Shown here in pieces: positions 8,780-60,832 of a stretch of 64,000 nt of DNA (its first letter is position 1; every line of letters starts with the position of its first letter). Origin of the DNA: Tubulanus polymorphus. Lineage: Eukaryota > Animalia > Nemertea. Location of the stretch: the NCBI RefSeq assembly GCF_964204645.1, contig NC_134032.1:4364175-4428174 (forward strand). The letters run 5' to 3'. The notes below the pieces were generated by a model that was not told the origin of the DNA, did not search any database, and saw only the letters and a list, made by a program, of their open reading frames with translations. The position numbers and the translations under genes are program-made.

Positions 8780-9382
8780 AGTAATAGGGGTAATAGGCTT
8801 TCATACCAAAGGTCGAACGGTCGAGCCCATTAAAAAACAAAATATTAAAAGTAATTAAAAAACTATAATATATTTTCATAACCGCGTGCATTTTATATCA
8901 AAACTAAATATTTATTCTAAGATATCAATAATATAAAAAGCATATTGTATTAAATCAATTGGTCGCTCCACTTCGCTACCGCTCCGCTCCGCGACCAATT
9001 GATTTAATTACAATACACAAATTCAAATAATCAAATATATTCAAATGATAATAATTATTCTATTATTCAACTGAAATGCACGCGGTTATGAAAATATATT
9101 ATAGTTTTTAATTACTTTTAATATATGTTATTAATGAACTCGATCATTAAACCTTTGATATGAAAGCCTATTACCCCTATTACTCTTAAAATATTCATAT
9201 GTATATATGAATAACATTTAAATCATTGAACTTCTAAAATCAATTTTAATAAAAAATATAGTATTAAAATGGAAGCAAATAAGTACTACTACCCAACATG
9301 TAATATCGATATAGATAAATCCCAAAAAGCAAGACACAATAAAACTAGAACACATTTAGAAAATAAATTGAAACTAGAATAT
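8780..9382. repeat. E1 left TIR; 8780-9184 is a fold-back hairpin; includes the pPolB upstream region and first 38 codons
   Basis: Reverse complement of 26544-27143 with a few differences. Confidence 0.95.
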
Positions 9383-12300
9383 AAAGATGATATATTAGAA
9401 ACTAAATTAGAAGAATTAAAGAATGAAAAAGAAACATATAAATGTGATACATGTAATCAATCATTCAGTGATAAAAGATATCATAAAGAACATTTAAAAT
9501 CTATAAGTCATATTAGAAATAAGAATAATGATATTTTAGGTGAAGATTATTTTGATAATGATAACGATAAGAAACAGAAGACAATTAAAAGAATAAAAAA
9601 TAAATTAAACAATAAAAGACCATATATGGAAGATGTAAGAAATTATATTAATTCATTAGATAATAAAAAAGATATAGAGATAACCGAAGCATTTAAAAGT
9701 GATATTGGTCCAGCAGCTATTGAGTTTAAATTTCATAAAGGAAAAACAATAGAAGAAAATAAAAAACATTTAGAAAATATGAAAGAAATAATAAAAATAA
9801 TTACAGATGTTGAATATCCTAAAATAAGTATATCAGTTAAAGTAAAGTTTATAAAATCTGAAGATAAACCAATATATAATATAAATTCTCATTCACAACA
9901 TATTATATCTAAACAACATATAGATGATAAATTAAATAAATGTTATAATGAAATAAAAACTAAAATAGAAGAGAAATATTTTGAAGGATCTGGTTTAATA
10001 TTTGATGAGATAATATTTATAACTTTACATGTTTATAACACAAAATATAATAAGTTAACTAAATCAAAACCAATTGATGAAAATAATTTATCATATTATA
10101 AAGAACCAGATATTGAAGCATCGAGTTATATTAAACTACCATTTAAAACTAATGCTGTTATAAACATACAAAATGAAGATGATAAATGTTTTCTATGGTC
10201 TATAATAAGTTGTTTACATCCAACAGAAGATATTACACATAGTTTTAGATTAACTCATTATAAACCATTTGAAAGTAATTATAAGATAGATAAGTATCCT
10301 GTTAGAATTAAAAACATCCCAAAAATAGAAAGAGATAATAATATAAAGATAAATGTATTTGATTTAATCAAATTACCAAATACAAAAGGTAACAACATAA
10401 AACATTATACATTAGAACCTTTATACCTATCAAAAGATTATGATTCAAATGATGTTATAGATATACTATATTATGAGAATCATTATATGTGGATTAAACA
10501 AATAGATTTATTTTTTAGAACAGAAAGTGATCACCATAATAAAATATATCTATGTAGAAAATGTTTACATAAATTTAGTAATGAAAGTACATTATTAAAT
10601 CATAAACAACTATGTGATAATCATGATTATTGTAAAATTAGTTTTACCAAATGAAAAAGATAAAATATTAGAATTCAAAAAATATGATTACAAAAATAAA
10701 GTACCATTTGTAATATATGGAGATTTTGAATCATTAAATAAAGAATTAACAGATAAAGATAGAAAAGATATATATTATAAAAGAAAGAAATTAAATTCTA
10801 ATGAAAGTGATTATTCAGAAGAACCACCAAAAACAAATACTATTAAAAAGATTCATCAATCAGCTGCTGCTTTCGGGTTATATATTAAATCTGATTATCC
10901 AGAACTAATTGAAAGTGAATATTATGATTATAGAAATGAAAATGTTATTAATCATTTTTGTGACTTATTAATTGAATATGAAATAAGATTTAGTAAATTA
11001 TTGAATACAAATAAAGAAATAATTATGACAGAAGAAGATAAAGAAGAATTTGAGTTTGCAGATAAATGTTATTATTGTGAAAAGATATTTAATTATAAAG
11101 ATAAAAAAGTAAGAGACCATGATCATTTGAATGGAAAGTTTAGAGGCGCTGCACATGAGAATTGTAACTTACAAGCTAAGAAAATTAATTTTGTACCAGT
11201 TATATTTCACAATTTATCGGGGTATGACGCGCATTTATTTATCAAACAGTTATGTCATAAAATAGAAGAAATCAATAATGAAATAGAAATATTAAATTCA
11301 AATAGATCAAAAGATAAAATACCAACTTATAAATTTAGAATGTTAGCTAAAACATCTGAGAATTATATATCATTCCAATTTGGTTGTCTAAGATTTATAG
11401 ATTCATATAGATTTTTAAGTAGTTCATTAGATAACTTATCAAAATCATTAGTTGATGATGAATTAAAGATATTAAAAGAATATTACCCAAATAATGATGA
11501 TTTTCAATTAATGAGATATAAAGGAGCAATTCCATATTCATTTTATAAATCACATAATGATTTTAAAATAACTGAATTATTAAAAGAACAATTCTATGAT
11601 GAATTAAAAAATGAATATGTTAAAGATGAAGTCTATAATAGAACATTGAATATTTGGAATCATTTCAAAATAGAAAATCATGGGCAATTAGTAGATTTAT
11701 ATTTAAAATCAGATGTATTATTATTAACCGATATATTCGAAAGGTTTAGAGATGTAAACCTAAAATATTTCAATATTGATCCTTGTCATTGTTATTCATC
11801 ACCAGGATTAACATGGGATTGTGGTTTAAAATTTACAGATATAAAAATGGATTTGTTAACAAATATAGATCAATTACTATTATTTGAAAAATCTATAAGA
11901 GGAGGTGTTTCAGGTGTATTGGGTGATAGATATTTCAATGTAAATGATAATCCTGGATATAAATTATTATACATAGATGCAAATAATCTTTATGGTTGGG
12001 CAATGATGGAACCACAACCTTATGGGATGTTTGAAATAACTGAAGTTTTACAAATTGATAAATTTGATTGGAAGAAAAGAATCCTAGATATTGCAGATGA
12101 TTCAGATATTGGTTACTTCTTCGTTGTAGATTTAGAATACCCTGAAAATATTAAATTCAAATCTAGAAATCTAGCATATTGTCCCGAACATAAAACTGTT
12201 AAACATGAAGAATTATCAAATTATCAAAAAAGAATTAAACCCGATAATCATATTCATACTGAAAAGTTAATGGTAACTCAAGAAGATAAATATAATTATG

Positions 12301-13300
12301 TAGTACATTATAGAATGTTGAAGTTTTATTTGAGACAAGGAATGATATTAAAAAAAGTACATAGATATATTTAATTAGTCAATCTAAATGGTTAGAAAAA
12401 TATATAGATTTTAATACTACACAGAGAACTAAATCTAAAACTGATTTTGAGAAGGATTTCTTCAAACTAATGAACAATGCGTTCTATGGTAAGATTTGTG
12501 AAAATATTAGAAATAGAAATGATATTGAGTTAGTTAGTAATGGTAAAAGGATAAGGCATTTACAATCATATCCTAAGTTTATAGGTAACAGAATATTTGA
12601 TGAAAATTTAGCAGCAGTTAATATGAGAAGAACATCAATGAAATTTAATAAACCAATTTATGTTGGAGCTGCAGTTTTAGAATTATCAAAGTTATTAATG
12701 TATAAATTTTACTATAACGTATTACAACCTCATTTTGGAGAAAAACATATAGAAATCTTATATTTTGATACAGATTCTTACATATTAAAGATAAAAACTG
12801 ATAACATAACTGATGATTTAAAAACATTAAAACATCATTTTGATTTCAGTAACTATCCAAAAAATCATGAATTGTTTACCAATGATAATAAAAAAGTTCC
12901 TGGGAAGTTTAAGGATGAATTAGGTGGTGAAGAAATGATAGAGTTCATTGGTATTAGATCTAAAATGTATTCATATAAAACCAAAACTCATGAAGCTAAA
13001 AAGTTAAAAGGAATTACCAAAAGCGTTGTTGAAAAGAATATTCATTTCAAAGATTATATCAATTGTATATTTAATGAAGAAGTTAGAAAACATAAGATGA
13101 AATGTTTAAGATCTGAAGATCATGAAATGTATATTGAAGAGATAGAGAAGATAAGTCTAAACCCATTTGATGATAAAAGATATATTTTAGATGATGGAAT
13201 CCACACAGTCGCCTATGGTTGCAATTTAGATGAATATATAAAATTCAAAAGAGAAGAAACAAAAGAAAATGAGATTATGAAAAGGATTCTAGCGTGTTAA
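9269..13300 (+). pseudogene. polB: Protein-primed family B DNA polymerase (Zn fingers, vOTU-like protease, endonuclease VII insert, exonuclease and polymerase domains); two frameshifts
   Basis: Motifs INIQNEDDKCF, YENHY, VIYGDFES, CYYC..RDHDHLNGKFRGAAHENCN, FHNLSGYD, YIDANNLYGWAM, MNNAFYGK, YFDTDS. Relative to E2 there is an extra A at 10634-10637 and a 1-nt loss near 12373-12377. Confidence 0.95.
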
Positions 13301-13328
13301 TCAATTTCAATAAAAATTTGTATAATAA

Positions 13329-13670
13329 ATGGAGAGTAAACAAGTACACAGTGAATTCTTAGATAGAATTAAAGATACTTCAAGCGTCAAATCTGTAGAT
13401 TATAAATTTAAAAAAATAACTGAGTTAACAATTCACAAGAAATATTTAATTACTAACATTGAAACAATTACTAATAAATATGGAGATAAATTAGTAATTC
13501 ATTTAGAATATGAAGGATTAAAAGGAAATAAATATAAATTCAGAACTTATTTACCAGATAGATTTCATAGATTATCAAGTGAAGATCTAGAAGAATTATG
13601 TTCTGGAGATTTCTATTTCATATATAAAGGTAAGAATGAAAAAGGGCACCACGATATTGATTTTGAATGA
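13329..13670 (+). CDS. 113-aa protein, possibly OB-fold/ssDNA-binding
   Basis: Nearly identical in E2; TAAATG start; beta-rich pattern (YLITNIETITNKYGDKLVIHL, TYLPDRF); function is a guess. Confidence 0.7.
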   Translation: MESKQVHSEFLDRIKDTSSVKSVDYKFKKITELTIHKKYLITNIETITNKYGDKLVIHLEYEGLKGNKYKFRTYLPDRFHRLSSEDLEELCSGDFYFIYKGKNEKGHHDIDFE

Positions 13671-13685
13671 AAATATGTAAAATAA

Positions 13686-14444
13686 ATGGCGGAATTAAAA
13701 GAATACAGAATATTTGTTGATTCTAGAAAACTTACAAATTATAAATCACATAATTTACTAGTTCAATTAGATAGAGAATTTAAGAATTGTGTTGATTTAA
13801 AATTAGTAAATATAAGTTTATGTAATTCTTTTTACAATATATCGAATAAAACTATTGAACATAATACTTTTTTAATTCATATTAGAAATATAAATAAATG
13901 GTTTCATCTATTTCTAAGACCAGGATTATATAATTTAGAAACATTAGCTCAAGAAATTAATCGTAGAGCACGGTTGAAAATTAGAAAAGATGATAAATTT
14001 TTAATAAGATTTATAAAAAGTGATAGCTCAAATAGAATTAAAATAAAGGTATTTGATGAAAGTCAACATGCATTTATGGTAAAAAAACCTATAGCTAAAT
14101 TGCTAGGAATTGAACCAGATGTTGTTACAGTAAACGTAGAAGGTATTTCAAATATAATACCTTTTACACATTTTTATATTTATTGCAATTTAATTGACCC
14201 TACAAAAACATTTGAAGCAACTAAAGATACAATTTGTAGTTCTAGTATACTAAATATTTTACCGCTAAAAAATGTTAAACAATTTGGAACTCAAATAAAT
14301 TATAATTTAACAGAATGTGATTTTAAACCTTGCATTCCTAAATTAAATAATTTTAAATTAGAAATAAGAAATCATAATGGATATTTAATTGATTTGAATA
14401 ACTTTCCTGTGATATATGAATTAGTTATAAGATGTAGAGAGTAA
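13686..14444 (+). CDS. Minor capsid (penton) protein, single jelly roll
   Basis: Size and motifs FYIYCNLI, ILNILPL, LEIRNHNGYLIDLN..PVIYEL resemble Polinton pentons. Confidence 0.8.
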   Translation: MAELKEYRIFVDSRKLTNYKSHNLLVQLDREFKNCVDLKLVNISLCNSFYNISNKTIEHNTFLIHIRNINKWFHLFLRPGLYNLETLAQEINRRARLKIRKDDKFLIRFIKSDSSNRIKIKVFDESQHAFMVKKPIAKLLGIEPDVVTVNVEGISNIIPFTHFYIYCNLIDPTKTFEATKDTICSSSILNILPLKNVKQFGTQINYNLTECDFKPCIPKLNNFKLEIRNHNGYLIDLNNFPVIYELVIRCRE

Positions 14445-14460
14445 TTTTTCACCTATATAA

Positions 14461-14808
14461 ATGAATATAACTGTTGGACCGAGTATATGTTTTGGATTTG
14501 ATTTTAAACGTGAGAAAGAAATGAAATTTAACATTAATGATGTAATTACACATATCAAAAATATTGCATTTTCTAATGGAACAACATTTGAGTATAAAAA
14601 AACAATTGATAAAGAAACTTTTAATGTAGAAAAGATTACTGAGTCTTTAAGATTTTATGAATTAGATGAAGATTTTATAATCGATGATATTAAAAACATA
14701 TTATCCAAAATATATGATAATCATAAAACTAGTAATGAAATTAATGTTGAATTAATCATAAATAAGTTAACTAAATATTTTGATGATAGTAATTTTTTTG
14801 ATAAATAA
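14461..14808 (+). CDS. Hypothetical protein, 115 aa
   Basis: Orthologue in E2 (48387-48728); TAAATG start. Confidence 0.75.
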   Translation: MNITVGPSICFGFDFKREKEMKFNINDVITHIKNIAFSNGTTFEYKKTIDKETFNVEKITESLRFYELDEDFIIDDIKNILSKIYDNHKTSNEINVELIINKLTKYFDDSNFFDK

Positions 14809-15030
14809 ATGAGTGATAATAAGTGGATAATAACTGGATTATATAATGGCGCATTACTATCAGTTGGAACGGTTGGTTATTCAATGGTATTAAAAAAAGT
14901 ATTCAAAATGGGAAGTGTTAATGTTGATAGATTTGATATAAATGATATTTTAAAGTTAACATTAGCAGTTACTTTATCTAATTTAACTATCGATTATTTG
15001 GAAAAACAAAAATATATTCCTCCCATATAA
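14809..15030 (+). CDS. Small hydrophobic/amphipathic protein, 73 aa
   Basis: Identical protein in E2; the upstream stop and this start form TAAATG. Confidence 0.8.
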   Translation: MSDNKWIITGLYNGALLSVGTVGYSMVLKKVFKMGSVNVDRFDINDILKLTLAVTLSNLTIDYLEKQKYIPPI

Positions 15031-15055
15031 ATGCATAATTTTTTTTGCTAAATAA

Positions 15056-15478
15056 ATGGCTTCTGCAATTATAACTATTATAGGATCGGCAATTGTTAAC
15101 GCTTTAGCATTTACTGGTGGTGGTTATTTATTTAAACATATTGATAAAAATAGTTCATTAGGAGAACAAAGAAGACATAACTTAGCGTTAGAGAAATACA
15201 ATAAAGCTGCAGAAGAATATAGAGAAAAGAGGCAAAACTATATGGATTACATCAATAAAGAATTATATGATCAGAAGATTTCACATAGAGATTTTCAATC
15301 AGTTGATGATGCAATGAGTTTATATAACGCAGTAACAAATAAAGAAAAATTACATCTATACAAACCTAAATTATCAGATTATTATACCCCAAGTAAAGAA
15401 CAACAGAAATATGAAATAATTTGGATTTTAGGTGGAACAGTTATTGTTATATTTGTTGCTTATAAGTTTACTAATTAG
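15056..15478 (+). CDS. 140-aa protein with hydrophobic N-terminus, coiled coil and C-terminal TM helix
   Basis: Identical protein in E2 despite synonymous changes. Confidence 0.85.
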   Translation: MASAIITIIGSAIVNALAFTGGGYLFKHIDKNSSLGEQRRHNLALEKYNKAAEEYREKRQNYMDYINKELYDQKISHRDFQSVDDAMSLYNAVTNKEKLHLYKPKLSDYYTPSKEQQKYEIIWILGGTVIVIFVAYKFTN

Positions 15479-15497
15479 TAATTTTTATTCTAAATAA

Positions 15498-15932
15498 ATG
15501 GAAGATAAAGTTGATAGTATTGATATTATTCCTCATGATATAAATAAAACTAAATTAAAAACATATTTAGAAAAACAAATATTAGAATTTGAAAGTGACT
15601 TAAAGATAAAAAAGAAAAAATATTTAAAAAGTAAAATTATATATTATCTTATTATAAGTGGTTCGGTTACAATTAGTTCTGTAATAACATTTTTAGCAAT
15701 ATTCAGTCCATTAACACCTTTAGCTATATCAATTGGTGTATTAGGATTAAGTTCAAGTGTTTTAACTGGTATAAGTTCAAAATTAAATATAAAAAGTAAT
15801 AAAGAAAAAATTAAAACTAATATAAAAGAAATTAATAAATTAAAGAATACACTAGATTATATAATAAGTTTAAATGGCCATATAACAGCTGAAGAACAAG
15901 ATAAATTATTAAAAGAATTAATAAATTATTAA
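15498..15932 (+). CDS. 144-aa two-TM-helix protein
   Basis: Central hydrophobic hairpin IIYYLII...LTGIS; conserved in E2. Confidence 0.85.
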   Translation: MEDKVDSIDIIPHDINKTKLKTYLEKQILEFESDLKIKKKKYLKSKIIYYLIISGSVTISSVITFLAIFSPLTPLAISIGVLGLSSSVLTGISSKLNIKSNKEKIKTNIKEINKLKNTLDYIISLNGHITAEEQDKLLKELINY

Positions 15933-15948
15933 TTTTTTAGTTATATAA

Positions 15949-17337
15949 ATGGCAGATAGTTTTCCAAAAGCTTTCCAATATAATAAATCAATTAAATATA
16001 ATATTCCAGCAATAGATATTAATAAAGATATTACATATAGAAATGAAGTTTTAGATTCATTAACTAATTTAGAAATTTATGTTACTGAAACTTATAATTT
16101 TAATGCAAAGATGGAAAATATATTTCATGTATATTTAATTAATTTTAAAAAATTGAAAGATGAAAAACAATGGTTATTAAAATCTAATATGAAGTATTGG
16201 CAGAATCAATTAAATTTTGCTGTTTATTGTGCAACAACAGGATGTGGAATTAGTTGGAATGATCATTTGAATAATTCTAAATATAAATTAATTCAAAGTT
16301 TATTTAGATTTCATACATACTTTCAAATCAGAATAATATTAAATGAATTAGAGTGCGCTTTACCAGGATCTAGGTATTTCAAAGAATTAGATAATAATAT
16401 TAATTTATCTAAGTTTTATAAAATTTGCAATGAATTTAATATAGATATAAATAATTCTGATTTTAGAACAAAAATTGGAACAATAAGATCACTTCCATGC
16501 CCTAGAAAGATTGCAGAATATTGTGCACTTCCCATACCATCTAATAGTTTTTATAATATCTATAATAATAAATTAGGTTATGGTAAAATAGAAACAAAGG
16601 ATTTAGAAACATTAAATTTCAATAAATTACCAAAATTTTATGATAATTTAAAACAAGAAAACAATAATGGTTGGGTATATTTTATTTTAGAAAATAGTGA
16701 AGGTTTTACTAAATCAGGTATAGAAAGAATAAATCAATCTATTAGAACTTATTTAATTTGTATTTTAGGTGCGCAAGTTGAAACAAGATCACCGATAATT
16801 GGAAATTTGAATACTTCATTCGATGCGCAGAAACAGTTTAAAGTTTTATTTGAAGATTCAATTCATAATGATAAAAATAGATCGATTCCAGAAAACATTA
16901 TAAGATATCAAAATTATTTAGATAAATCTCATGTAAGACTTAATTATTGTATAGGCCCTAATCTATTAATTATTTCTAATGATTTAGTATTAAAGATGGG
17001 AAATATAATTGGTTATAATAATCTAATTAAAACTGCGACAATAAATAATTCATTTGGATTAAATGATATAAATAAAAAGATTATTACTGCTCCAAAATTA
17101 ATGGAAGGTGAAAAAAATAAAAAACATATTCAATCAACTGAAACTAAAACTAAGAATATTAAATTGGATAATGATTCTAAAATAAAAGATTACAATACAT
17201 CAGAAAATAATAGAACTGATATTATTCAACATGATATAATTAAACTAAATGATGATAATGAATCCCATGAAAATACTAAATTAGCTATAACTTGTATAGG
17301 AATTGTAATCGGAGGAATATTATATTTTAAATTTTAA
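15949..17337 (+). CDS. 462-aa protein with C-terminal membrane anchor, function unknown
   Basis: Long ORF conserved in E2; ends LAITCIGIVIGGILYFKF. Confidence 0.88.
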   Translation: MADSFPKAFQYNKSIKYNIPAIDINKDITYRNEVLDSLTNLEIYVTETYNFNAKMENIFHVYLINFKKLKDEKQWLLKSNMKYWQNQLNFAVYCATTGCGISWNDHLNNSKYKLIQSLFRFHTYFQIRIILNELECALPGSRYFKELDNNINLSKFYKICNEFNIDINNSDFRTKIGTIRSLPCPRKIAEYCALPIPSNSFYNIYNNKLGYGKIETKDLETLNFNKLPKFYDNLKQENNNGWVYFILENSEGFTKSGIERINQSIRTYLICILGAQVETRSPIIGNLNTSFDAQKQFKVLFEDSIHNDKNRSIPENIIRYQNYLDKSHVRLNYCIGPNLLIISNDLVLKMGNIIGYNNLIKTATINNSFGLNDINKKIITAPKLMEGEKNKKHIQSTETKTKNIKLDNDSKIKDYNTSENNRTDIIQHDIIKLNDDNESHENTKLAITCIGIVIGGILYFKF

Positions 17338-17353
17338 TTTTTTTATTATGTAA

Positions 17354-19087
17354 ATGGATGTAGAAGGTGGAGAAGATTATGAAATGGGAGAAATGGGAAA
17401 TAATAATGAAGGATATATTGATGATGATTATAATGATGCAGGCGCTAATCTTAATGAAACTAATATTGATAATGATGATGAATCAGCATATAATACTAAT
17501 TTAGGTGAAGATGATGATTATGATGATGATGATGATGATGATCCCGAATTACGTGAAAAATTAAATAAATATTTAAAAGCTCCTGAAATTGGTAGAATTT
17601 CAACTAGAAGAGAAAGAAAAGAATTTATGGAACTATTAGTAAAACAACAAGAAAAATATCCTGATGAACCTATGGAATTATATAAAATGAAATCTAGAGT
17701 AACAGATACAATTGTTAACGAATTACTACCAATAGCTGTAATACATGAAATTGATACAGAAGGTGTTGTAGAACAAATTTTTAAAGATGACCCATATTTC
17801 ACAAATAATTTAGAATTTAAAAATGATTCATGGTATTATAATGTTAATTTAAATAACAAAATTGTATCAATTCAATTATCTAAAATGGGTCAAGAAAATA
17901 TTTATGAACCTGAAATGCGAGCAACATCTACAATTGAAGGTTCAAAAGGTGGTAGAGAATTTCTCAGAATTATATGGAATGCACTCGATAGAATAAATAA
18001 AGAAGAACCAATTCCTAATATTGATATAAACAAATATTCACCATTTAAAAATCCAAATCCAAATCCTACTGATTTTGATCCAGAAATGGAAGAGAATAGA
18101 AATCGATTAGATAGATTGAGATCTTCAACACCCGAAACATCGAGAAGAGACACTCAACAAATTGATAATTATTCAAGTAAATTACAATTAGAAAAACAAA
18201 TTGATAGATTAAGAGATTCAGAAGAACTGATGAATAGTATATCAGATACATCTGGTTCTGAAACTGGAATAAATCGACTGCAATATTTACTAGAAAAAGG
18301 ATTTCTTAATTTAACTGATGAAGAATTAGAAGCATTTCCTAAACAAATACGTAGAGAAATTAAAGGTATACAAGTATCAGCTGATGAAATTGCTAATATT
18401 AAGATGAGATTTTCTAAAATAACCATATTAGAAAAAGAATTAGTTAATGTAGATGAAGAATTAAAACAATTAGAATTAAATAGAGATCTTAATGTAATTT
18501 ATGAAGCTGATTATGAAAGCAGAAAGTTAGCTTTAGTAAAAGAAATAGATGATTTAGAATATAACATAAAATTACAAAAAGAAGAAAGAGATATATTATT
18601 AAAATCATATGATCTTAATCATATTAAAAAATTAAAAGTTATTTTTAAAGATTTGTTGATAAAACCAGATTCTGAAATATCATTAAAAGACAGAATAAGA
18701 TTATTATTTAAGTTAGAAGGTATAACAATTCTTTCAATTGTAACAGCTGTAACTATGTTATTTACAACAATTGGTTTAGCAATATCAAATGCTTTAAAAT
18801 CTACTCCTACTCCCACTCCAAATAAACCAGATAAACCTCCAGGCAATAATTCTATACAAGATAAAGTTAAGGATGGTTTAAAAAAATTAGCAAAATATTT
18901 ATGGGAACTATCAAAGAAATCTGCTGCAGCTTTACCAGGAGTTATTGCTTCAATTGTTGGTTTTATATTGAAATCTGCAGGAAACATTATTAACTTTGCT
19001 GCTGAACATATTATTTTATTTTTAATTACAGTTGTAAGTGCTATTATTTTTGGTTTAGTAAATATGATATCAAAAAATATCAAGTAA
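17354..19087 (+). CDS. 577-aa acidic/coiled-coil protein with C-terminal hydrophobic helices and variable middle
   Basis: N- and C-termini conserved with E2 44384-45841; middle not alignable. Confidence 0.88.
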   Translation: MDVEGGEDYEMGEMGNNNEGYIDDDYNDAGANLNETNIDNDDESAYNTNLGEDDDYDDDDDDDPELREKLNKYLKAPEIGRISTRRERKEFMELLVKQQEKYPDEPMELYKMKSRVTDTIVNELLPIAVIHEIDTEGVVEQIFKDDPYFTNNLEFKNDSWYYNVNLNNKIVSIQLSKMGQENIYEPEMRATSTIEGSKGGREFLRIIWNALDRINKEEPIPNIDINKYSPFKNPNPNPTDFDPEMEENRNRLDRLRSSTPETSRRDTQQIDNYSSKLQLEKQIDRLRDSEELMNSISDTSGSETGINRLQYLLEKGFLNLTDEELEAFPKQIRREIKGIQVSADEIANIKMRFSKITILEKELVNVDEELKQLELNRDLNVIYEADYESRKLALVKEIDDLEYNIKLQKEERDILLKSYDLNHIKKLKVIFKDLLIKPDSEISLKDRIRLLFKLEGITILSIVTAVTMLFTTIGLAISNALKSTPTPTPNKPDKPPGNNSIQDKVKDGLKKLAKYLWELSKKSAAALPGVIASIVGFILKSAGNIINFAAEHIILFLITVVSAIIFGLVNMISKNIK

Positions 19088-19132
19088 ACCATGATATCAA
19101 AAAATATCAAGTAAACCATGATATCAAAAAAT
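19070..19132. repeat. 27-bp tandem duplication (~2.5 units) at the end of the 577-aa gene
   Basis: ATGATATCAAAAAATATCAAGTAAACC repeated; single copy in E2. Confidence 0.8.
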
Positions 19133-19160
19133 AAATAATTAATTTTTTTTGGTTAAATAA

Positions 19161-20408
19161 ATGAGTGGGAGTTATATAAGTCCTTCGAAGAATCATAGAA
19201 TATCTAATGCTATTAAAGCAGAAAGATCACATCATATAATTACTCATAACTTTTCAAATATTAATCCCGATGAAACTTTATATGTGAGGATTCCTCGATT
19301 AACACAAAATACTTTTTATGTTCCAAAGAGTATTTATTTATCAGCCGATATAAAAGTATCTGGTAATAATAATAATTATGTTGTTGATAATGTTGGAAGA
19401 TATTTGATTAAAAAGTTAACAATAAAGATTGGTCCAGAAACAGTTTTCTCATTAGATGATTATAATTTATTTATGCATTATAAAGATTTATGGTTAACTA
19501 AAGAAAATAGAAATAATATGATATTTCAAGGAATTCAATCAGAAAACCAAAATAAATTAAGATCAGAAGCTTATAGCGCAATATTAACTAATGATGTAGA
19601 TAAATTGATAAAAAGTATATATGGAAGCAAATATAAAATTCCATTAGACTTTGAATTGATAAATAATAATGCACCTTTATATAAATACGCAATTCAAGAA
19701 GACGTTATATTTGAGATAACATTTGCTCCTGTAAATGAAATTGTATTATCTAGCGTTGTTAAAGATATGGGTTATAAATTATCGAATATATGTTTAGAAT
19801 ATGATACAGTAACTGATGAAAATATTTCAAGTATAATTCAAACTCAATACAATCAAGGATTTTCATTATTATATGATTATATCGATAAATTTAAAACTGT
19901 AACTATTAATGCAAATGATGAAATAATTAATGAGAATATTAACTTTCCTAGAAGATCTATTAAAGGTATATTAATATTTTTTACCATTGGAACGTATACT
20001 AATGGCGCAATAAATGTTGATAATTATTATAATCCTGAAATAACAAAAGTAGAAATAACTATCGAAGGAATAGCGAATAAAATATTCTGTCAAGGAATGA
20101 GAATGATTGATCAATGGGTAGAAATTAAAAAACATTTTATGAATGAAAAAGTGAAATCATCTGAAGATTGTAATATTAATCAAATTGATTATTATACCGG
20201 TAATAAATATGCATTATGGTTAGATTTTAGAACAACTGAAGATAATTCATTACATGGTTCTGGAAAAAAACTACAGAACACTAAAGATGGAATACAATTA
20301 TTCATGACAAAGAATAAAGGAATCAAAAATTTTAAAATGCACATTTATATTATATCTGACGCGCAATTAAATATTGTAAATTCACAATTAGATAGTGTTA
20401 TGTATTAA
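19161..20408 (+). CDS. Major capsid protein (double jelly roll)
   Basis: 415 aa, beta-rich, N-terminal pattern NINPDETLYVRIP..FYVPKSIYLSADIKV, IKKLTIKIG; highly conserved with E2; only ORF fitting an MCP. Confidence 0.8.
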   Translation: MSGSYISPSKNHRISNAIKAERSHHIITHNFSNINPDETLYVRIPRLTQNTFYVPKSIYLSADIKVSGNNNNYVVDNVGRYLIKKLTIKIGPETVFSLDDYNLFMHYKDLWLTKENRNNMIFQGIQSENQNKLRSEAYSAILTNDVDKLIKSIYGSKYKIPLDFELINNNAPLYKYAIQEDVIFEITFAPVNEIVLSSVVKDMGYKLSNICLEYDTVTDENISSIIQTQYNQGFSLLYDYIDKFKTVTINANDEIINENINFPRRSIKGILIFFTIGTYTNGAINVDNYYNPEITKVEITIEGIANKIFCQGMRMIDQWVEIKKHFMNEKVKSSEDCNINQIDYYTGNKYALWLDFRTTEDNSLHGSGKKLQNTKDGIQLFMTKNKGIKNFKMHIYIISDAQLNIVNSQLDSVMY

Positions 20409-20440
20409 AATTTTAACTTTAATAAAAATATATATAATAA

Positions 20441-21343
20441 ATGGAAGGAGGTAAAGTATATAAACATATTCCATACATCGATACACATGAAAATAATGAT
20501 GGTTTATATTATGTAATACCTTGTAATATAGCTTTGATATTTGATCCTATTTTTAAAAATTATAAAACTAAACTGATAGAAATCGATAATAATAAAAGTG
20601 GTGTTGTTAATAATAGTATAATTGATAATAATGTAATACCTACTACACCTGTAATACCTACTACTACATCTGTAATACCTACTACTACATCTGTAATACC
20701 TACTACAGTAATACCTACTACATCTAATAATGTAATACCTTCTACATATAATAATGCAATAATATTAGATGTTAGTGAAAATAGAAATTATTGTGGTTAT
20801 TGTAATGGTGAATTTTCAAACGCTCCATCAAATTGGAATAAACATATGAATACAAAGGTACATATTACTAATGTTATAGAACGTGTTGGTTTAAGAGAAT
20901 TTATAGAACACCCATTTAGATATGTTACAAAATTTGTTTCAAATAAAAAAGTAAATGGTAAAGAATTATATGAAGATTTTTTATTAGCAACACCTAATAG
21001 AGATGAATTAGATTTAACCGATGCTAATGAAATATTAGGATCAAATATTGTAAATGAAATATTAGGAGCAAACACTAATAAAGATAATAATGATAATGAT
21101 GCCATAAAGCACCCACATGATGATATAGTTACAGATAAGCATATTGATAATAAAGATTCTATAAAACTTAAAGTAGAAAATAATAATAAATTTGATTGGA
21201 TGAATAAGTTTAAAAATGAAACAACTATTGATGATGCGGTAAAAAAGATGAAGAATGAGTATAAAAATAATGAAGAATTTGAAAAAGAAAATTCGGTAGA
21301 TAATTTGAGAAAATTGTTAGGATATAATAGTGAAAGTGATTAA
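20441..21343 (+). CDS. 300-aa protein with (VIPTTT)n repeats and a C2H2-like Zn finger
   Basis: CGYC...WNKHMNTKVH motif; minisatellite ~20632-20750; orthologue in E2. Confidence 0.85.
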   Translation: MEGGKVYKHIPYIDTHENNDGLYYVIPCNIALIFDPIFKNYKTKLIEIDNNKSGVVNNSIIDNNVIPTTPVIPTTTSVIPTTTSVIPTTVIPTTSNNVIPSTYNNAIILDVSENRNYCGYCNGEFSNAPSNWNKHMNTKVHITNVIERVGLREFIEHPFRYVTKFVSNKKVNGKELYEDFLLATPNRDELDLTDANEILGSNIVNEILGANTNKDNNDNDAIKHPHDDIVTDKHIDNKDSIKLKVENNNKFDWMNKFKNETTIDDAVKKMKNEYKNNEEFEKENSVDNLRKLLGYNSESD

Positions 21344-48744: not shown

Positions 48745-49506
48745 TTACTCTTTACATCTTATAACTAATTCATAAATTACAGGAAAGTTATTTAAATCAA
48801 TTAAGTATCCATTATGATTTCTAATTTCTAATCTAAAATTATTAAAACGAGGAATGCATGGTTTGAAATCACATTCTGTTAAATTATAATTTATTTGCGT
48901 TCCAAATTCTTTAACATTCTTCAATGGTAAAATGTTTAGTAAACCAGAATTACAAGTTATATCTTTAGTTGCTTCGAATGTTTTTGTAGGATCAATTAAA
49001 TTGCAATAAATATAAAAATGTGTGTAAGGTATTAAGTTTGGTGTAGTAGCGTCAATATTTGTAAAAGATCTATGTGGAAGAATTCCTAACAGTTTAGCTA
49101 TAGGTTTTTTTACCATAAGTTTATGTTTTTCACTATTAGACAACCTTATCTTTATTCTATCAGAACTCTCACTTTTTAAAAATCTAATACTAAACCCAGA
49201 ACTACTACCTAATTTGTGCCAGGCTTTTCTATTAATTTCTTGTGCTAATGTATCTAAATTATATAACCCTGGTTTTAAATATATATAGACCCATTCATTT
49301 TTATTTTTATTAAAAACTAAAAAGACTCTATGTTCAATAGACTTATCCGATACATTGTAAAAAGAATTACATAAACTTATATTTACTGATTTTAAATCTA
49401 CACAATTCTTAAATTCTCTATCTAATTGTACTAATAAATTATGTGATTTATAATTTGTAAGTTTTCTAGAATCAACAAATATTCTGTATTCTTTTAATTC
49501 TACCAT
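48745..49506 (-). CDS. Minor capsid (penton) protein
   Basis: Orthologue of 13686-14444. Confidence 0.8.
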   Translation of the reverse strand: MVELKEYRIFVDSRKLTNYKSHNLLVQLDREFKNCVDLKSVNISLCNSFYNVSDKSIEHRVFLVFNKNKNEWVYIYLKPGLYNLDTLAQEINRKAWHKLGSSSGFSIRFLKSESSDRIKIRLSNSEKHKLMVKKPIAKLLGILPHRSFTNIDATTPNLIPYTHFYIYCNLIDPTKTFEATKDITCNSGLLNILPLKNVKEFGTQINYNLTECDFKPCIPRFNNFRLEIRNHNGYLIDLNNFPVIYELVIRCKE

Positions 49507-49521
49507 TTATTTTACATATTT

Positions 49522-49863
49522 TCATTCAAAATCAATATCGTGGTGCCCTTTTTCATTCTTACCTTTGTATACGAAATAGAAATCTCCAGAACATAATTCT
49601 TCTAGATCTTCACTTGATAATCTATGAAATCTATCTGGTAAATAAGTTCTGAATTTATATTTATTTCCTTTTAATCCTTCATATTCTAAGTGTATAACTA
49701 ATTTATCTCCATATTTATTAGTAATTGTTTCAATGTTAGTAATTAAATATTTCTTGTGAATTGTTAATTCTGTTAACTTTTTGAATTTATAATCTACAGA
49801 TTTAACGCTTGAAGTATCTTTAATTCTATCTAAGAATTCACTGTGTACTTGTTTACTCTCCAT
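49522..49863 (-). CDS. 113-aa protein, possibly OB-fold
   Basis: Orthologue of 13329-13670. Confidence 0.7.
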   Translation of the reverse strand: MESKQVHSEFLDRIKDTSSVKSVDYKFKKLTELTIHKKYLITNIETITNKYGDKLVIHLEYEGLKGNKYKFRTYLPDRFHRLSSEDLEELCSGDFYFVYKGKNEKGHHDIDFE

Positions 49864-49891
49864 TTATTATACAAATTTTTATTGAAATTGA

Positions 49892-52800
49892 TTAACACGC
49901 TAGAATTCTTTTCATAATCTCATTTTCTTTTGTTTCTTCTCTTTTGAATTTTATATATTCATCTAAATTGCAACCATAGGCGACTGTGTGGATTCCATCA
50001 TCTAAAATATATCTTTTATCATCAAATGGGTTTAGACTTATCTTCTCTATCTCTTCAATATACATTTCATGATCTTCAGATCTTAAACATTTCATCTTAT
50101 GTTTTCTAACTTCTTCTTTAAATATACAATTGATGTAATCTTTGAAATGAATATTCTTTTCAACAACGCTTTTGGTTATTCCTTTTAACTTTTTAGCTTC
50201 ATGAGTTTTGGTTTTATATGAATACATTTTAGATCTAATACCAATGAACTCTATCATTTCTTCACCACCTAATTCATCCTTAAACTTCCCAGGAACTTTT
50301 TTATTATCATTGCTAAACAATTCATGATCTTTAGGATAGTTACTAAAATCAAAATGATGTTTTAATGTTTTTAAATCATCTGTTATGTTATCAGTTTTTA
50401 TCTTTAATATGTAACTGTCAGTATCAAAGTATAGAATTTCTATGTGTTTTTCTCCAAAATGAGGTTGTAGTATATTATAATAAAATTTATACATTAGGAA
50501 TTTTGAAATTTCTAGAACTGCAGCACCAACATAAATAGGTTTATTGAACTTCATTGAAGTTCTTTTCATTTTAACTGCTGCTAAATTTTCATCAAATATT
50601 CTGTTACCTATAAACTTAGGATATGATTGTAAATACCTAATTCTTTTACCATTACTGACTAACTCGATATCATTTCTATTTCTAATATTTTCACAAGTCT
50701 TACCATAGAATGCATTATTCATTAGTTTGAAGAAATCTTTTTCAAAATCAGTTTTAGATTTAGTTCTCTGTGTAGTATTAAAATCTATATATTTTTCTAA
50801 CCATTTAGATTGACTGAATGAAATATATCTATGTACTTTTTTTAATATCATTCCTTGATTCAAATAAAACTTCAACATTCTATAATGCACAACGTAATTA
50901 TATTTATCTTCTTGAGTTACCATTAACTTTTCAGTATGAATATGATTATCAGGTTTAATTCTTTTTTGATAATTTGATAATTCTTCATGAGTTACAGTTT
51001 TATGTTCGGGACAGTAAGCTAGATTTCTAGATTTGAATTTAATATTTTCAGGATATTCTAAATCTACAACGAAGAAGTAACCAATATCTGAATCATCTGC
51101 AATATCTAGAATTCTTTTCTTCCAATCAAATTTATCAATTTGTAAAACTTCAGTTATTTCAAACATCCCATAAGGTTGTGGTTCCATCATTGCCCAACCA
51201 TAAAGATTATTTGCATCTATGTATAATAATTTATATCCAGGATTATCATTTACATTGAAATATCTATCACCCAATACACCTGAAACACCTCCTCTTATAG
51301 ATTTTTCAAATAATAGTAATTGATCTATATTTGTTAACAAATCCATTTTTATATCTGTAAATTTTAATCCACAATCCCATGTTAAACCTGGTGATGAATA
51401 ACAATAACAAGGATCAATGTTAAAATATTTTAGGTTTACATCTCTAAACCTTTCGAATATATCGGTTAATAATAATACATCTGATTTTAAATATAAATCT
51501 ACTAATTGCCCATGTTTTCTATTTTGAAATGATTCCAAATATTCAATGTTCTATTATAAACTTCATCTTTAACATATTCATTTTTTAATTCATCATAAAA
51601 TTGTTCTTTTAATAATTCAGTTATTTTAAAATCATAATGATTTTTATAGAAAGAATATGGAATTGCTCCTTTATATCTCATTAATTGAAAATCATCATTA
51701 TTTGGGTAATATTCTTTTAATATCTTTAATTCGTCATCAACTAATGATTTTGATAAGTTATCTAATGAACTACTTAAAAATCTATATGAATCTATAAATC
51801 TTAAGCATCCAAATTGGAAAGATATATAATTCTCAGATGTTTTAGCTAACATTCTAAATTTATAAGTTGGTATTTTATCTTTTGATCTATTTGAATTTAA
51901 TATTTCTATTTCATTATTGATTTCTTCTATTTTATGACATAACTGTTTGATGAATAAATGCGCGTCATACCCCGATAGATTATGAAATATAACTGGTACA
52001 AAGTTAATTTTCTTAGCTTGTAAGTTACAATTCTCATGTGCAGCGCCTCTAAACTTTCCATTCAAATGATCATGATCTCTTACTTTTTTATCTTTATAAT
52101 TAAATATCTTTTCACAATAATAACATTTATCTGCAAACTCAAATTCTTCTTTATCTTCTTCTGTCATAATTATTTCTTTATTTGTATTCAATAATTTACT
52201 AAATCTTATTTCATATTCAATTAATAAGTCACAAAAATGATTGATAACATTTTCATTTCTATAATTATAATATTCACTTTCGATTAGTTCTGGATAATTA
52301 GATTTAATATATAACCCGAAAGCTGCAGCTGATTGATGAATCTTTTTAATAGTATTTGTTATTGGTGGTTCATCTGAATAATCACTTTCATTAGAATTTA
52401 ATTTCTTTCTTTTATAATATATATCTTTTCTATCTTTATCTGTTAATTCTTTATTTAATGATTCAAAATCTCCATATATTACAAATGGTACTTTATTTTT
52501 GTAATCATATTTTTTGAATTTTAATATTTTATCTTTTTCATTTGGTAAAACTAATTTACAATAATCATGATTATCACATAGTTGTTTATGATTTAATAAT
52601 GCACCTTCAGTTCTGAATTTATGTAAACATTTTCTACATAGATATATTTTATTATCAAAATCATTTTCTGATTTAAAAAATAAATCGATTTGTTTAATCC
52701 ACATGTAATGATTCTCATAATATAGTATATCTATAACATCATTTGAATCATAATCTTTTGATAGGTATAAAGGTTCTAATGTATAATGTTTAATATTATT

Positions 52801-53922
52801 TCCTTTTGTATTTGGTAATTTGATTAAATCAAATACATTTATCTTTATATTATTATCTCTTTCTATTTTTGGGATGTTTTTAATTCTAACAGGATACTTA
52901 TCTATCTTATAATTATTTTCAAATGGTTTATAATGAGTTAATCTAAAACTATGTGTAATATCTTCTGTTGGATGTAAACAACTTATTATAGCCCATAGAA
53001 AACATTTATCATCTTCATTTTGTATATTTATTACACCATTAGTTTTAAATGGTAGTTTAATATAACTTGTTCCATTTATACTATCATCTTTATAATATGA
53101 TAAATTATTTTCATCAATTGGTTTTGATTTAGTTAACTTATTATATTTTGTGTTATAAACATGTAAAGTTATAAATATTATCTCATCAAATATTAAACCA
53201 GATCCTTCAAAATATTTCTCTTCTATTTTAGTTTTTATTTCATTATAACATTTATCTAATTTATCATCTATATGTTGTTTAGATATAATATGTTGTGAAT
53301 GAGAATTTATATTATATATTGGTTTATCTTCAGATTTTATAAACTTTACTTTAACTGATATACTAATTTTTGGATATTCAACATCTGTAATTATTTTTAT
53401 TATTTCTTTCATATTTTCTAAATGTTTTTTATTTTCTTCTAATGTTTTACCTTTATGAAATTTAAACTCGATAGCTGCTGGACCAATATCACTTTTAAAT
53501 GCTTCGGTTATCTCTATATCTTTTTTATTATCTAATGAATTAATATAATTTCTTACATCTTCCATGTATGGTCTTTTATTGTTTAATTTATTTTTTATGC
53601 TTTTAATTATCTTCTGTTTCTTATCGTTATCATTATCAAAATAATCTTCACCTAAAATATCATTATTCTTATTTCTAATATGACTTATAGATTTTAAATG
53701 TTCATTATAATATCTTTTATCACTGAATGATTGATTACATGTATCACATTTATATGTTTCTTTTTCATTCTTTAATTCTTCTAATTTAGTTTCTAATATA
53801 TCATCTTCATATTCTAGTTTCAATTTATTCTCTAAATGTGTTCTAGTTTTATTGTGTCTTGCTTTTTGGGATTTATCTATATCGATATTACATGTTGGGC
53901 AGTAGTACTTATTTGCTTCCAT
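49892..53922 (-). pseudogene. polB: Protein-primed PolB with one frameshift
   Basis: All motifs present; 1-nt deletion at 51514/51515 (GAAAACAT versus GAAAATCAT in E1). Confidence 0.95.
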
Positions 53923-54409
53923 TTTAATACTATATTTTTTATTAAAATTGATTTTAGAAGTTCAATGATTTAAATGTTATTCATATATATATGAATATTT
54001 TAAGAGTAATAGGGGTTTAGTTGTTTCATATCAAAGGTTTAATGATCGAGTTCATTAATAACATATATTAAAAGTAATTAAAAAACTATAATATATTTTC
54101 ATAACCGCGTGCATTTCAGTTGAATAATATAATAATTATTATCATTTGAATATATTTGATTATTTGAATTTGTGTATTGTAATTAAATCAATTGGTCGCG
54201 GAGCGGAGCGGTAGCGAAGTGGAGCGACCAATTGATTTAATACAATATGCTTTTTATATTATTGATATCTTAGAATAAATATTTAGTTTTGATATAAAAT
54301 GCACGCGGTTATGAAAATATATTATAGTTTTTTAATTACTTTTAATATTTTGTTTTTAATGGGCTCGACCTTTCGACCGTTGGTATGAAACAACTAAACC
54401 CCTATTACT
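53834..54409. repeat. E2 TIR (hairpin 54005-54409)
   Basis: Reverse complement of 35638-36222. Confidence 0.95.
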
Positions 54410-57864: not shown

Positions 57865-60832
57865 GCATTATGAGAATGCCGGTTTGCTAGCGTATCTATT
57901 CAACACCCGTATTGCTCGGGTTAGTTTTACTATCAACGGGTGGCGCTGTATGTAAATTTCACATAAATCAACGACTTTCGGCTATTAGCGGTACTTAAGA
58001 CCACTTGAAAACATCATAGTCAATTACGGTAGTAGTGAACATAAAAAGATACAGTACAAAGATATAGTACGGTGTACAGTTAAGGACATGATTCCATAGG
58101 ACCCATACCAGAGACATTTTGTTCAGACAAGGACTATTAGTTAAACACTAATCTTCATTTTCAGCAATTAACGATCTGGTGAATTAATAAGTGATTCGGT
58201 CTTTCGGTGGTTCGAGATAAAATGCCCGCAAAATAAGAACCTAACGAACCAGGGCTAGCCACAAATTGCCCAACAGATAAATTTTCGAAACGACACAATC
58301 CAATCATGTTTGGTATCAAATGTGGCGTGGACCATGGTCTTTTAAATGACCAATGCGTGACCAGTACTGACCATATAGTGAATTATTTGTTTGCAAACAA
58401 TTAAGTTGTTTGGTGTCAAATAACTAGATATGATGTGGGCATTAATTTAAAAATTGTTTAACTGACCAATGCTTGACCAGTACAGACCAGTTACCAGTGC
58501 TAACCAGAACCCCCATAAGTAATTTATATGTTTCGTGAATCCTTTGTTAGTACTACTAGCTCTTACATTTAAATTTGTCGCTTGAAAAAGTCTTGTCCGA
58601 TTTTTGTTGTAGGTAGCGAGCTAACTTTGAAATTCCGCTAAAATGCATAAGATTTTTACGTAGGGTTTTGAACGAACAACGTTTCCATTTGTAATTGTAA
58701 CGTGCGCATTTGAGCCTGTAACGTGCACATTTCACTCGCGTGAACGTGAGTAATAGGGAATAAGTTGTTTCATACCAAAGGTCGAAGGGTCGAGCACACT
58801 CTCCCCTTCAACCTTTGATATGAAACAACTTATTCCCTATTACTCTTAAAATATTCATATAAATGAACATTATTTACATGAATTTCATATACTTTAAAAT
58901 CATTTATATGTTAATTATAAAAGTGTGAGTAAAGTGTGAGTAATAATTCATATTTTAACAGATTTCGAATAAAAATATAAGTTAAAAAAAGGGTTGAATA
59001 AAAAAACAATAAGTTACTTTATCTAATACTAACTTATTTAACTTATTGTTTTTTTATTTAAATCTTTTTGATTTCTATTCACGCTATTGGTTAACAAGAA
59101 TTGACTAGAATTCAAATAGATTTAACAAGAAATTCAATAACTTTAACTGTTAGTATCACTCTTGTATTATTTCATTGTTTCTCTTATTGAATAAGCCAAC
59201 TAACTAATATCACTCTTGTATTATCCTAGTCAAATGTAAAGAATTTACAATATCATATTTGAATAAATTAAAACATAAATTACTTCTGTGACTTCATTTT
59301 CAGAAATAAAGCATAATATGTATTTAATACATTAATATGTATTTAATATGTATCGTTTACTTTGAAAACACAATTTGCATTTTGTGGACATCTATTTTTT
59401 TCTGCACCAAAAGCTTGAAGCGTATTATCTTTGCTTGTAAAAATTTGAAATTTTGGGGAAGATTTTTGGCCTCGTTAACCTGTGAGCACGTCCTTCATAT
59501 ATTTTGCTAAGACCGACCCTTGAAATAATGCTGAGAGTTTCGAGGATAATTTTGGTAGGATGTAAACTTAGGCTGCTTCGTATCCGTGGAGGGTTGCTAA
59601 TTATTGATTCTATACACAATAATCATAAGTACCATGAGATTCGATAGAATATCGTTTTTCAATCATACGTACACGCATTATCGCAATATAAAGATAGATA
59701 ATATGTTCATATTCTTTTTACGTCTTATACTGTATATTTCTTTAATAGTACAAATAAGCAGGCCACCTGAGACCATTCCACGATCTAAGGTAAGTTGCCA
59801 AAAGTTAGTAAGTTTACCAGTGGATAGTTAACATTTATAATGACAATTAAATTTTCATTGCTAAAATAACTTTGTACTTGTTGACTCAAAAGCAGAGAAT
59901 TGAAAATACGATAATACGATACGAAAACTCAGTGTACAAATTCAAAAAGATTATCTCTAGTGAGTGATCGAACGTTGTGTCGTAATTTTCTAATGATAAA
60001 ACATGGTTTGAAATTTGAAATGTGTACATAGTTGATCTTTTTCAGTGTATTTAGTCATATCATGTTGGATGATGGTTAATTTAAACTATCTTTTGAGAAA
60101 CGGGTCCCAGAGCTGTATCCTTTATTCCTGTAATAGAGGATGCAATCTATTTGCGACACACAGCTAGTGCAAATAGCTAGAAAAGGTAACAATAGTGCAT
60201 TGACAAACTTAGAGCAAGCGTACATTGGTTGTTTAGGTTTTTCGAAGGGGAGAATTTGTCGGAAAATTGATCATTACTGAGATATATCCGTGGCGAGCTT
60301 TTCCAGGGATTTAAAAAGTTGAGCTGTACACAAGGAATTTTGTGTAGTCCAATATCCATGATTACCTCTGGCGTGGAGAGATACAATCTAAAACCAACCC
60401 TAGAGTCAAATATTTTACCACAATTTTTTATGATCAATAAAAAGATTGAGTAATAGACATTCAAACAGTATATTATCTAAATTCCACTCCATTTTAAACT
60501 CATTCATTTCTACACAAACTCCAACTTGTTGAACAGTCCACATTAAAATTAGGGACCACTATTCTTGCTCATCTACACTGGCTACCAATCTAACAAAGGA
60601 TTGAATTTGAGTGTTTGATGTTATAACAATACCAGACTGAATTATGGATTCGGTTTCTACTTTTTAATTGAACATTTATATCACATATTGGGCATCATTT
60701 TTACCAGTATATATGGAATAACCTATCCTTATATCATGTTCAATTTTATATAATCTGACTTTTGAGATGTCATTCAATCAATGCATTCACATGCGGTCGT
60801 CGCTTTCAATAGCCACCAACGACTGGCTCCTT
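57865..60832 (+). repeat. Diverged direct copy (copy C) of ~27861-31196
   Basis: Collinear similarity with many substitutions and indels. Confidence 0.85.
58749..59350 (+). mobile_element. Truncated terminus of a third related Polinton (E3) with a 96-bp hairpin (58749-58844)
   Basis: AGTAATAGGG...TTTCATACCAAAGGTCGAA...CCCTATTACT-CTTAAAATATTCATAT matches the E1/E2 termini; interrupts copy C right after AACGTG; right boundary approximate. Confidence 0.85.

Follow-up and report, generated by a model that had tools for sequence, protein, structure and literature searches.

Polintons in the Tubulanus polymorphus window

The 64,000-nucleotide (nt) stretch of Tubulanus polymorphus analysed here (the window; NC_134032.1, positions 4,364,175 to 4,428,174) is eukaryotic DNA with 29% G+C, in which two A+T-rich islands are two copies (E1 and E2) of one Polinton/Maverick family in opposite orientations. 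Both have the terminal inverted repeats (TIRs; 586–610 bp at 98%), target-site duplications (TSDs; 6 bp, within 5–8 bp) and sizes (18.4 and 18.8 kb, within 13–25 kb) of Polintons. A sequence-only reading of the window had counted three elements; E1 and E2 are full-length, and the third, E3, is a lone 96-nt hairpin end for which no partner end was found within the window. The ends of these elements are hairpins that carry a 26-nt sequence on both arms and a polar mismatch at nt 27, and this end design is the subject of the present analysis.

The elements encode a DNA polymerase B of the protein-primed type (pPolB), identified by Pfam (PF03175, E 2.9e-12). Its gene is broken in both copies, and an intact relative of 1363 aa is known at 85% identity. 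A nuclease domain inserted in a divergent polymerase is a hallmark of pPolB2/beta-type Polintons; the window polymerase has an endonuclease VII-like insert, and the elements may therefore belong to this type. The probable capsid protein has a weak Capsid_N match in Pfam (E 0.008, below the cut-off) and 928 homologues, with an informative name in none of the 120 listed. No Pfam match to an adenovirus-like maturation protease, usual in Polintons though outside the pair of genes that defines the name, was found among E1 open reading frames (ORFs) of at least 100 aa, and no profile search was made for it. Coordinates are collected in Table 1.

Table 1. Polinton features of the window (positions in the 64,000-nt stretch)
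Feature	Position	Strand	Details
E1, full-length Polinton/Maverick	8780..27143	+	18,364 bp; TIR ~600 bp, 98% alike
E1 TSD AATATT, 6 bp	8774..8779		second copy 27144-27149
E1 copies of the 26-mer	8780, 9184, 26738, 27143	+, -, +, -	
E1 left terminal hairpin	8780..9184	+	405 nt; outer 26-mer 8780-8805, inner copy 9159-9184 (-)
E1 left hairpin, C/T boundary	8806/9158		second near-perfect stem at ~nt 64-114
E1 pPolB	9269..13300	+	three ORFs: 9269-10654, 10623-12374, 12470-13300
E1 pPolB, endonuclease VII-like domain	near 11030-11175		
E1 probable major capsid protein	19161..20408	+	E2 copy 43094-44341 (-)
E1 A32-type packaging ATPase	21530..22144	-	PF04665, E 2.4e-12; E2 copy 41384-41995 (+)
E1 rve integrase with chromodomain	22137..23222	-	PF00665, E 6.8e-8; E2 copy 40303-41391 (+)
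E1 stand-alone endonuclease VII/HNH-like gene	24523..25200	-	phrog_1035, E 3.6e-15; E2 copy 38392-39054 (+)
E1 right terminal hairpin	26738..27143	-	406 nt; inner copy 26738-26763 with one G>A
E2, full-length Polinton/Maverick	35638..54409	-	18,772 bp
E2 TSD AACTCT, 6 bp	35632-35637, 54410-54415		
E2 copies of the 26-mer	35638, 36051, 54005, 54409	+, -, +, -	
E2 terminal hairpin	35638..36051	+	414 nt, basal stem 26/26
E2 pPolB	49892..53922	-	broken, two ORFs
E2 pPolB, endonuclease VII-like domain	within 51973-52245		Pfam PF02945, E 1.6e-6
E2 terminal hairpin	54005..54409	-	405 nt, basal stem 26/26
E3, lone end, 96-nt hairpin	58749..58844	+	26/26 basal stem, then ~65 bp resembling element interior
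E3 copies of the 26-mer	58749, 58844	+, -	

A block that is swapped as a unit

The TIRs start with hairpins of 405–414 nt in E1 and E2 and of 96 nt in E3; the left hairpin of E1 has a folding energy of -113.7 kcal/mol (z = -19 against shuffles). The terminal 26-mer had been read as occurring four times per full element, on the outer and inner arm of each hairpin, and all ten copies in the window lie where this predicts. Nine of the ten are exact for their own element, the exception being the inner right copy of E1 (26738) with G>A at nt 10; the outer 26 nt accordingly equal the inner copy in four of the five window ends and match it at 25 of 26 positions in the fifth (E1 right). All five ends have outer C and inner T at nt 27, as had been reported from the sequence.

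E1 and E2 differ at 7 of the 26 positions, namely at every position of nt 13–19 in an ungapped alignment (a gapped alignment leaves a shifted TAG in common), while their left hairpins outside this block differ by one substitution, one 8-nt duplication and one 1-nt indel, which bears out the claim of a wholly different block in a nearly identical hairpin. The whole 18-kb E1/E2 alignment contains five runs of seven consecutive substitutions: four are the terminal blocks and the fifth lies inside an interior patch with 23% divergence. By its block E2 is nearest to E3 (3 differences, against 7 and 8 for the other pairs), whereas the hairpin body groups E2 with E1; the block has therefore passed whole from lineage to lineage, with its four copies changing together. 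Within the E1 block (8781-8797), nt 2–9 are repeated at nt 11–18 (GTAATAGG twice, with a 9-nt period), the pattern that slippage onto the tip during priming would leave. The inner copy of a related element, L002, has a 5-nt repeat with the same 9-nt period.

Co-variation of the two arms in raw reads

Illumina reads of the same species from another sample and study (X4) provide per-position frequencies, without linkage of outer and inner arm within one end. Read depth is ~3,900–4,400 on the outer arm and 42–50 in the flank, so the family must have numerous ends. With E3 as reference, 3,847 reads were placed, and among 40 of the 74 variants 15 changes fall within nt 1–26. Eleven of the 15 show the same base on both arms (nt 11, 12, 14, 15, 17, 18, 20, 22, 23, 25 and 26) and four occur on a single arm. 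None of these variants falls within nt 1–10, a conserved tip, and variation extends over nt 11–26; nt 13–19 thus describe the difference between E1 and E2 correctly and are too narrow for the family. Inner nt 28 has C>T in 29% of reads, a change absent among the listed outer-arm changes. What distinguishes nt 27 is a conserved lack of pairing. The co-variation over nt 11–26 is genuine, yet it is not confined below nt 27: of the sharp limit that had been expected at nt 26/27, the lack of mirroring at nt 27–28 stands, and confinement does not, as pairs in the upper stem also co-vary (see below).

These reads also bear on whether assembly or polishing homogenised the copies within each element. 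Both polymerase genes contain frameshifts, which errors left uncorrected in long reads would produce. Such an artefact is nevertheless scarcely credible: the mirrored variants come from raw reads of a different sample and study, the same design occurs in independent assemblies, and neither the copy at 26738 nor the left and right interior of E1 was homogenised. Moreover, 82 single reads run from arm to arm of short hairpins (joins from 58795 to 58797), and for this hairpin class an assembly effect is thereby ruled out.

The same end design in distant relatives

Relatives were collected by polymerase alignment (25 viral and 66 genome-bin loci, many of them host DNA within bacterial bins), to which 4 loci from metagenomes and additional stretches were joined. 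Ends were scanned in 141 loci (1.6 Mb; 5,197 end-motif sites), followed by pattern searches; all searches were seeded by the hairpin design, so that the counts give no measure of its frequency. Thirteen two-armed ends were found outside the window, which makes 18 with the five of the window. The polarity of the boundary is the same in all 18: outer C and inner T in 10 ends of AGT type, and one extra inner base in 8 ends of AC type. The basal stem has 19–29 nt and is perfect in 13 of the 18.

AGT-type ends include those of L001 (257 nt, 24/26 then C/T; a short-read metagenome contig whose polymerase is 82% alike at the DNA level), L035 (19/19 then C/T), L126 (29/29 then C/T) and L125, a complete 15.1-kb element with TSD in which 28/28 pairs, then C/T, then 40 more perfect pairs occur at both ends. 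The lone mismatch in the 69-bp stem of L125, at both ends, is thus this T·G. In the window, L125, L126 and L035 the boundary C is followed by A, A or T, so CpG decay fails to explain the C/T boundary. AC-type ends (L101, L099, L075, L276, L278, L279 and L280) have a 19-nt stem with one extra base on the inner arm, and L101 is a complete 19.4-kb element with both ends, ATPase, integrase and polymerase. The design is present in each of the two complete elements among the loci whose termini are true ones. Between elements that have it, the best-matching segments of the polymerases are only 24–37% identical; the most conserved feature is the C/T at nt 27, which persists in very distant elements.

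In sequence the AC-type ends are unrelated to those of the window, and they too have a fixed tip, a variable middle and a fixed motif after the bulge. Each outer arm is closest to its own inner arm, at distances of 0, 0, 0, 0, 1, 2 and 4, and the distance between elements averages 3.9 (permutation test, 1 of 5040). In chance controls a 19-bp fold-back begins at 11 of 15,602 random sites, and a 12-bp fold-back occurs at 0 of 120 chance sites from a looser pattern scan. Pattern and single-protein scans of viral contigs found nothing, no AC-type inner arm was present in 87 further bacterial genomes, and a search of canonical pPolB1 elements, a nuclease-free control, gave weak or partial matches only.

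Left out of the end count were L009 and L027 (TIRs cut at contig ends) and L002 (inner arm only, with T at nt 27). L016 was dropped as an end since its AGTAGT motif faces inward; its 184-nt hairpin (L016:4657-4840) lies upstream of the polymerase gene and is unlike the other ends. L040 and L102 were rejected as host repeats, and L145 as a lone T-type arm whose partner was not found. The TG-ended G003 family was also left out of the count and is treated below as a counter-case.

Fixed block length between conserved flanks in both end types, and a conserved tip beside a variable middle, are what would be expected of a block that labels its lineage for specificity or incompatibility. The sequence-only reading had offered such a tag, recognised by the terminal protein or the integrase, as a second explanation; the zinc fingers of the polymerase are another conceivable reader. 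Between E1 and E2 the N-terminal part of the polymerase has 27 differences in 457 residues, and these are clustered. The integrase, however, with 12 differences in 361 residues, is no more divergent than the capsid protein (14 of 415) or the ATPase (11 of 204), and the base-contacting residues of the second finger, by canonical C2H2 numbering, are identical. Many block variants coexist in one genome, and a tag does not itself explain why inner equals outer. The tag found no support here and is improbable.

Constant polarity also bears on hairpin transfer of parvovirus or poxvirus type, in which the 26-mer would be the last stretch of true duplex. The left end of minute virus of mice (MVM) bears a bubble and has asymmetric junction resolution. 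Long imperfect terminal hairpins are in keeping with such transfer; self-priming has been proposed for palindromic ends of virophages as well as Polinton-like viruses (PLVs; 10.64898/2026.07.28.741278), and certain parvovirus ends occur in a single form according to the section on them in PMC8242256. Terminal resolution should, however, yield flip and flop, and one polarity occurs in 18 of 18 ends. Further, none of the six loose ends listed for the raw reads lies behind the inner copy, no HUH replication protein was matched by Pfam in the E1 ORFs, and the ends start with motifs of protein-priming type (PMC8097293). We therefore rate hairpin transfer as very unlikely.

Nuclease domains in the polymerases

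An endonuclease VII-like domain occurs in the polymerases of the window, L001, L002, L035 and L101. The L126 polymerase has an HNH insert at a different place, and that of L125 has a Vsr-like domain instead (profile E 0.002; the top three PDB matches are all Vsr), whose predicted structure (mean pLDDT 80) matches 1vsr in Foldseek with E 5e-4; the TM-score for the Vsr fold is 0.48–0.50. No solved structure was matched by sequence for the nuclease domain of the window. Vsr targets T:G mismatches (PMC2715241), and T4 endonuclease VII introduces nicks at both bulges and mismatches (PMC10956419), as the relevant passages of these sources describe. The link between nuclease domains and mismatch or bulge ends is suggestive, without proof. 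The nuclease embedded in the polymerase is the likeliest candidate for a nicking enzyme, a role we assign to it tentatively, and the stand-alone endonuclease VII/HNH-like gene is a second candidate.

Proposed mechanism and its alternatives

To our knowledge, it has never been shown how an integrated Polinton regains its exact ends and starts replication. The parts observed here are four copies per element, co-variation, constant boundary polarity, a single orientation and a nuclease domain inside the polymerase. With outer C and inner T, the strand that carries the repeat at its 3' end forms a T·G pair and the opposite strand forms C·A. From these sequence features we propose that the outer tip may be regenerated from the inner copy as the 3' end folds on itself in excision or replication, a proposal that we hold to be evenly poised. 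The folded 3' end would be the working form, with a T·G pair (AGT type) or a one-base bulge (AC type) at the boundary on the 3'-end strand. The outer arm, with attached host DNA, would be removed on the terminal side of this mark by a nick or by exonuclease trimming; the polymerase's own nuclease domain perhaps makes the nick. The polymerase would then extend the folded 3' end on the inner copy, by which outer becomes inner, pairing between the TIRs would pass the block on to the opposite end, and a single orientation would be maintained by protein-primed synthesis that starts at the restored end.

By this route one mutation or crossover in the inner copy would reach all four copies, and a fast-changing, swappable block would therefore lie beside a slow hairpin body. 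Fold-back recopying, TIR pairing and protein priming would together result in four matching copies, block swaps by a single crossover and the lack of flip-flop; without recopying, the discordance of block and body would call for a pair of matching crossovers at each end. That one 26-mer is recopied from the other, as the sequence-only reading had suggested, fits the data best and has about an even chance of being right: the block swapped as a unit and the co-variation in the unrelated AC-ended family agree with it, and the homogeneity it led one to expect is not absolute. A more specific version is possible, though we hold it with less confidence: the T·G or bulge would be programmed, a mismatch-directed nuclease of the polymerase (endonuclease VII-like, HNH or Vsr, depending on lineage) would nick there and shed the host flank, and the polymerase would rebuild the exact tip, in a large branch of Polintons.

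Several observations weigh against recopying and against the nick. In the reads, T stands at nt 27 in 12% of outer-mapped reads, and the correlation between the allele frequencies of the two arms is weak (rho 0.45, p 0.16, n 11); clipping of divergent outer tips probably biases read frequencies. Among 40 of the 162 variants with E1 as reference, three upper-stem pairs change in step (nt 78/330, 106/303 and 110/299), where pairing is kept without need of tip recopying. Five of the 18 ends are imperfect (E1 right 25/26, L001 24/26, L278 18/19, L075 17/19 and L280 with an edit distance of 4). The apparent ends of a TG-ended family (G003), judged by shared boundaries and not by TSDs, have a short imperfect 68-nt hairpin or almost none. 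No replication intermediate was seen; the evidence is a sequence footprint and the direction of copying is inferred. As to the nuclease, E. coli Vsr nicks 5' of the T, which is here on the inner arm, a misfit with removal of the outer arm. The pairing of Vsr with T·G is known from one element (L125), and the endonuclease VII-like motif is near universal (109 of 120 polymerase proteins; 52 of 65 longer loci), being present also in 20 of 20 loci of the TG-ended family, which seems to lack the design. Krupovic et al. take such nuclease domains as relics of homing endonucleases or inteins, in the part of their paper that deals with them (PMC11161782).

Part of this evidence would suit a hairpin that is a structured origin under selection for pairing, with arms equalised occasionally by compensatory mutation, host mismatch repair or quasi-palindrome template switching, which we consider possible but doubtful. 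The T·G or bulge would then be a recognition mark that tells outer from inner, not a cut site; this too is a tentative suggestion. A structured origin accounts better than recopying for the co-varying upper-stem pairs and for the imperfect ends, of which L280 departs by a 3–4-nt stretch within the variable block. In 15 of 15 sequences tested, folding is more stable for the 3'-end strand than for its 5'-end counterpart, by as little as 0.1 kcal/mol and without a shuffle control, as such an origin would also allow. Stepwise compensation, however, would hardly lead to seven neighbouring changes in four copies next to a body that has a single substitution, or to the discordance of block and body, and among the imperfect ends are decayed copies (the polymerase frames near L075 and L280 are broken) and the short-read contig L001.

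The observation is confirmed and extends to other elements, and the ends represent a new form of Polinton terminus. Distant elements share a hairpin whose mismatch has constant polarity, which names a candidate substrate and enzyme. If true, the nick model would supply the missing step of precise excision in the Polinton cycle and a job for unexplained nuclease domains. Even if it fails, the end design is a marker for true Polinton termini and for outer versus inner copies.

Further observations on the elements and their hosts

Several relatives have additional features. In L001 the outer 17 terminal bases occur a third time (L001:942-964), flanked by 6-bp direct repeats and immediately upstream of the polymerase gene; this copy has the outer and not the inner allele, possibly through a template switch onto the tip or an aborted self-insertion. 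In L125 (169-291) the hairpin of an AC-type element has an AGT-type element inserted 8 bp from its tip; one end type may target the other, or both may favour the same sites. A 113-aa gene follows the polymerase gene in the window and lies between TIR and polymerase gene in L001 (600-935) and L002 (340-690). The TG-ended family (L102-L121 in G003) is multi-copy, with TGTTGT ends, a split polymerase gene and short palindromic repeat arrays inside the end, and it has two subfamilies that differ in retention of the 68-nt tip hairpin. Long contigs of eukaryotic hosts that carry integrated Polintons occur in the bacterial genome bins G001 and G003-G006, where polymerase matches number up to 170 (in G003); these Polinton-bearing contigs are host contamination of reference genomes.

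The interiors of E1 and E2 diverge by 1–8% in most 500-bp bins, with patches of 10–38%. This mosaic includes patches at 13686-14444, 17354-18300 and 25280-26500 that differ by 14–38%. A 252-aa gene differs at 65 residues between the two copies, and a 263-aa ORF with 21-bp repeats (37047-37838) occurs in E2 alone. E2 lies near the centre of a large host fold-back, in which 29657-32983 and 54423-57720 are 98% inverted copies, and 33024-35633 is itself palindromic with 114-bp tandem units. A 243-aa ORF at 8037-8768, which ends 11 bp before E1 and gave no Pfam match, presumably resembles the ORF1 protein of a long interspersed nuclear element (LINE).

Comparison with known systems

As described in PMC10748475 and PMC8502044, pPolB2-type Polintons, or beta adintoviruses, resemble the window elements in having pPolB, rve integrase, packaging ATPase, a capsid gene (probable in the window), TIRs, a 6-bp TSD, a length of 15–20 kb and a nuclease domain (HNH or VSR) inserted in the polymerase; the window elements differ by the end motif AGTAAT instead of (AGT)2, and Pfam detected no protease gene in E1. 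The word hairpin is absent from the main texts of Jeong et al. (PMC10748475) and Starrett et al. (PMC8502044), and the former, in its passages on polymerase nuclease domains, assigns them no role. Neither palindrome nor hairpin occurs in a survey of vertebrate Mavericks (PMC8097293). Our literature search found no report of a co-varying block, polar mismatch or nuclease link, with nothing relevant in the passages located in PMC11296320, 10.1101/2022.07.12.499685, PMC12747079, PMC4455052 and 10.64898/2026.10.13.758929, and hairpins of single families may be on record in Repbase or in Kapitonov and Jurka 2006.

Virophages and PLVs of Halocafeteria seosinensis have palindromes at TIR tips beside the TSD, which have been proposed to prime replication after excision (10.64898/2026.07.28.741278). 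Their palindromes measure 52 nt in the subtype drawn, mostly with non-pPolB replicases and in a protist, in contrast to 96–414 nt with pPolB in the window. A conserved mismatch, co-varying block or nuclease link is not mentioned in the accessible text of that report, whose supplements may show mismatches. Parvoviruses, which differ in being single-stranded and in using an HUH nickase and host polymerase, with no integrase and no protein priming, also have imperfect terminal hairpins with a fixed asymmetric mismatch at left ends; some parvovirus ends have a single orientation, as a review of HBoV1 describes (PMC8242256). Streptomyces telomeres (Tap) are like the proposed mechanism in that, as set out in the relevant part of PMC5449611, protein-primed ends have a folded 3' strand that is restored from an inner palindrome with a stop at a boundary. 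This repair is bacterial, restores up to 4 nt from a 13-nt palindrome, and uses a separate primase without integration (PMC5449611).

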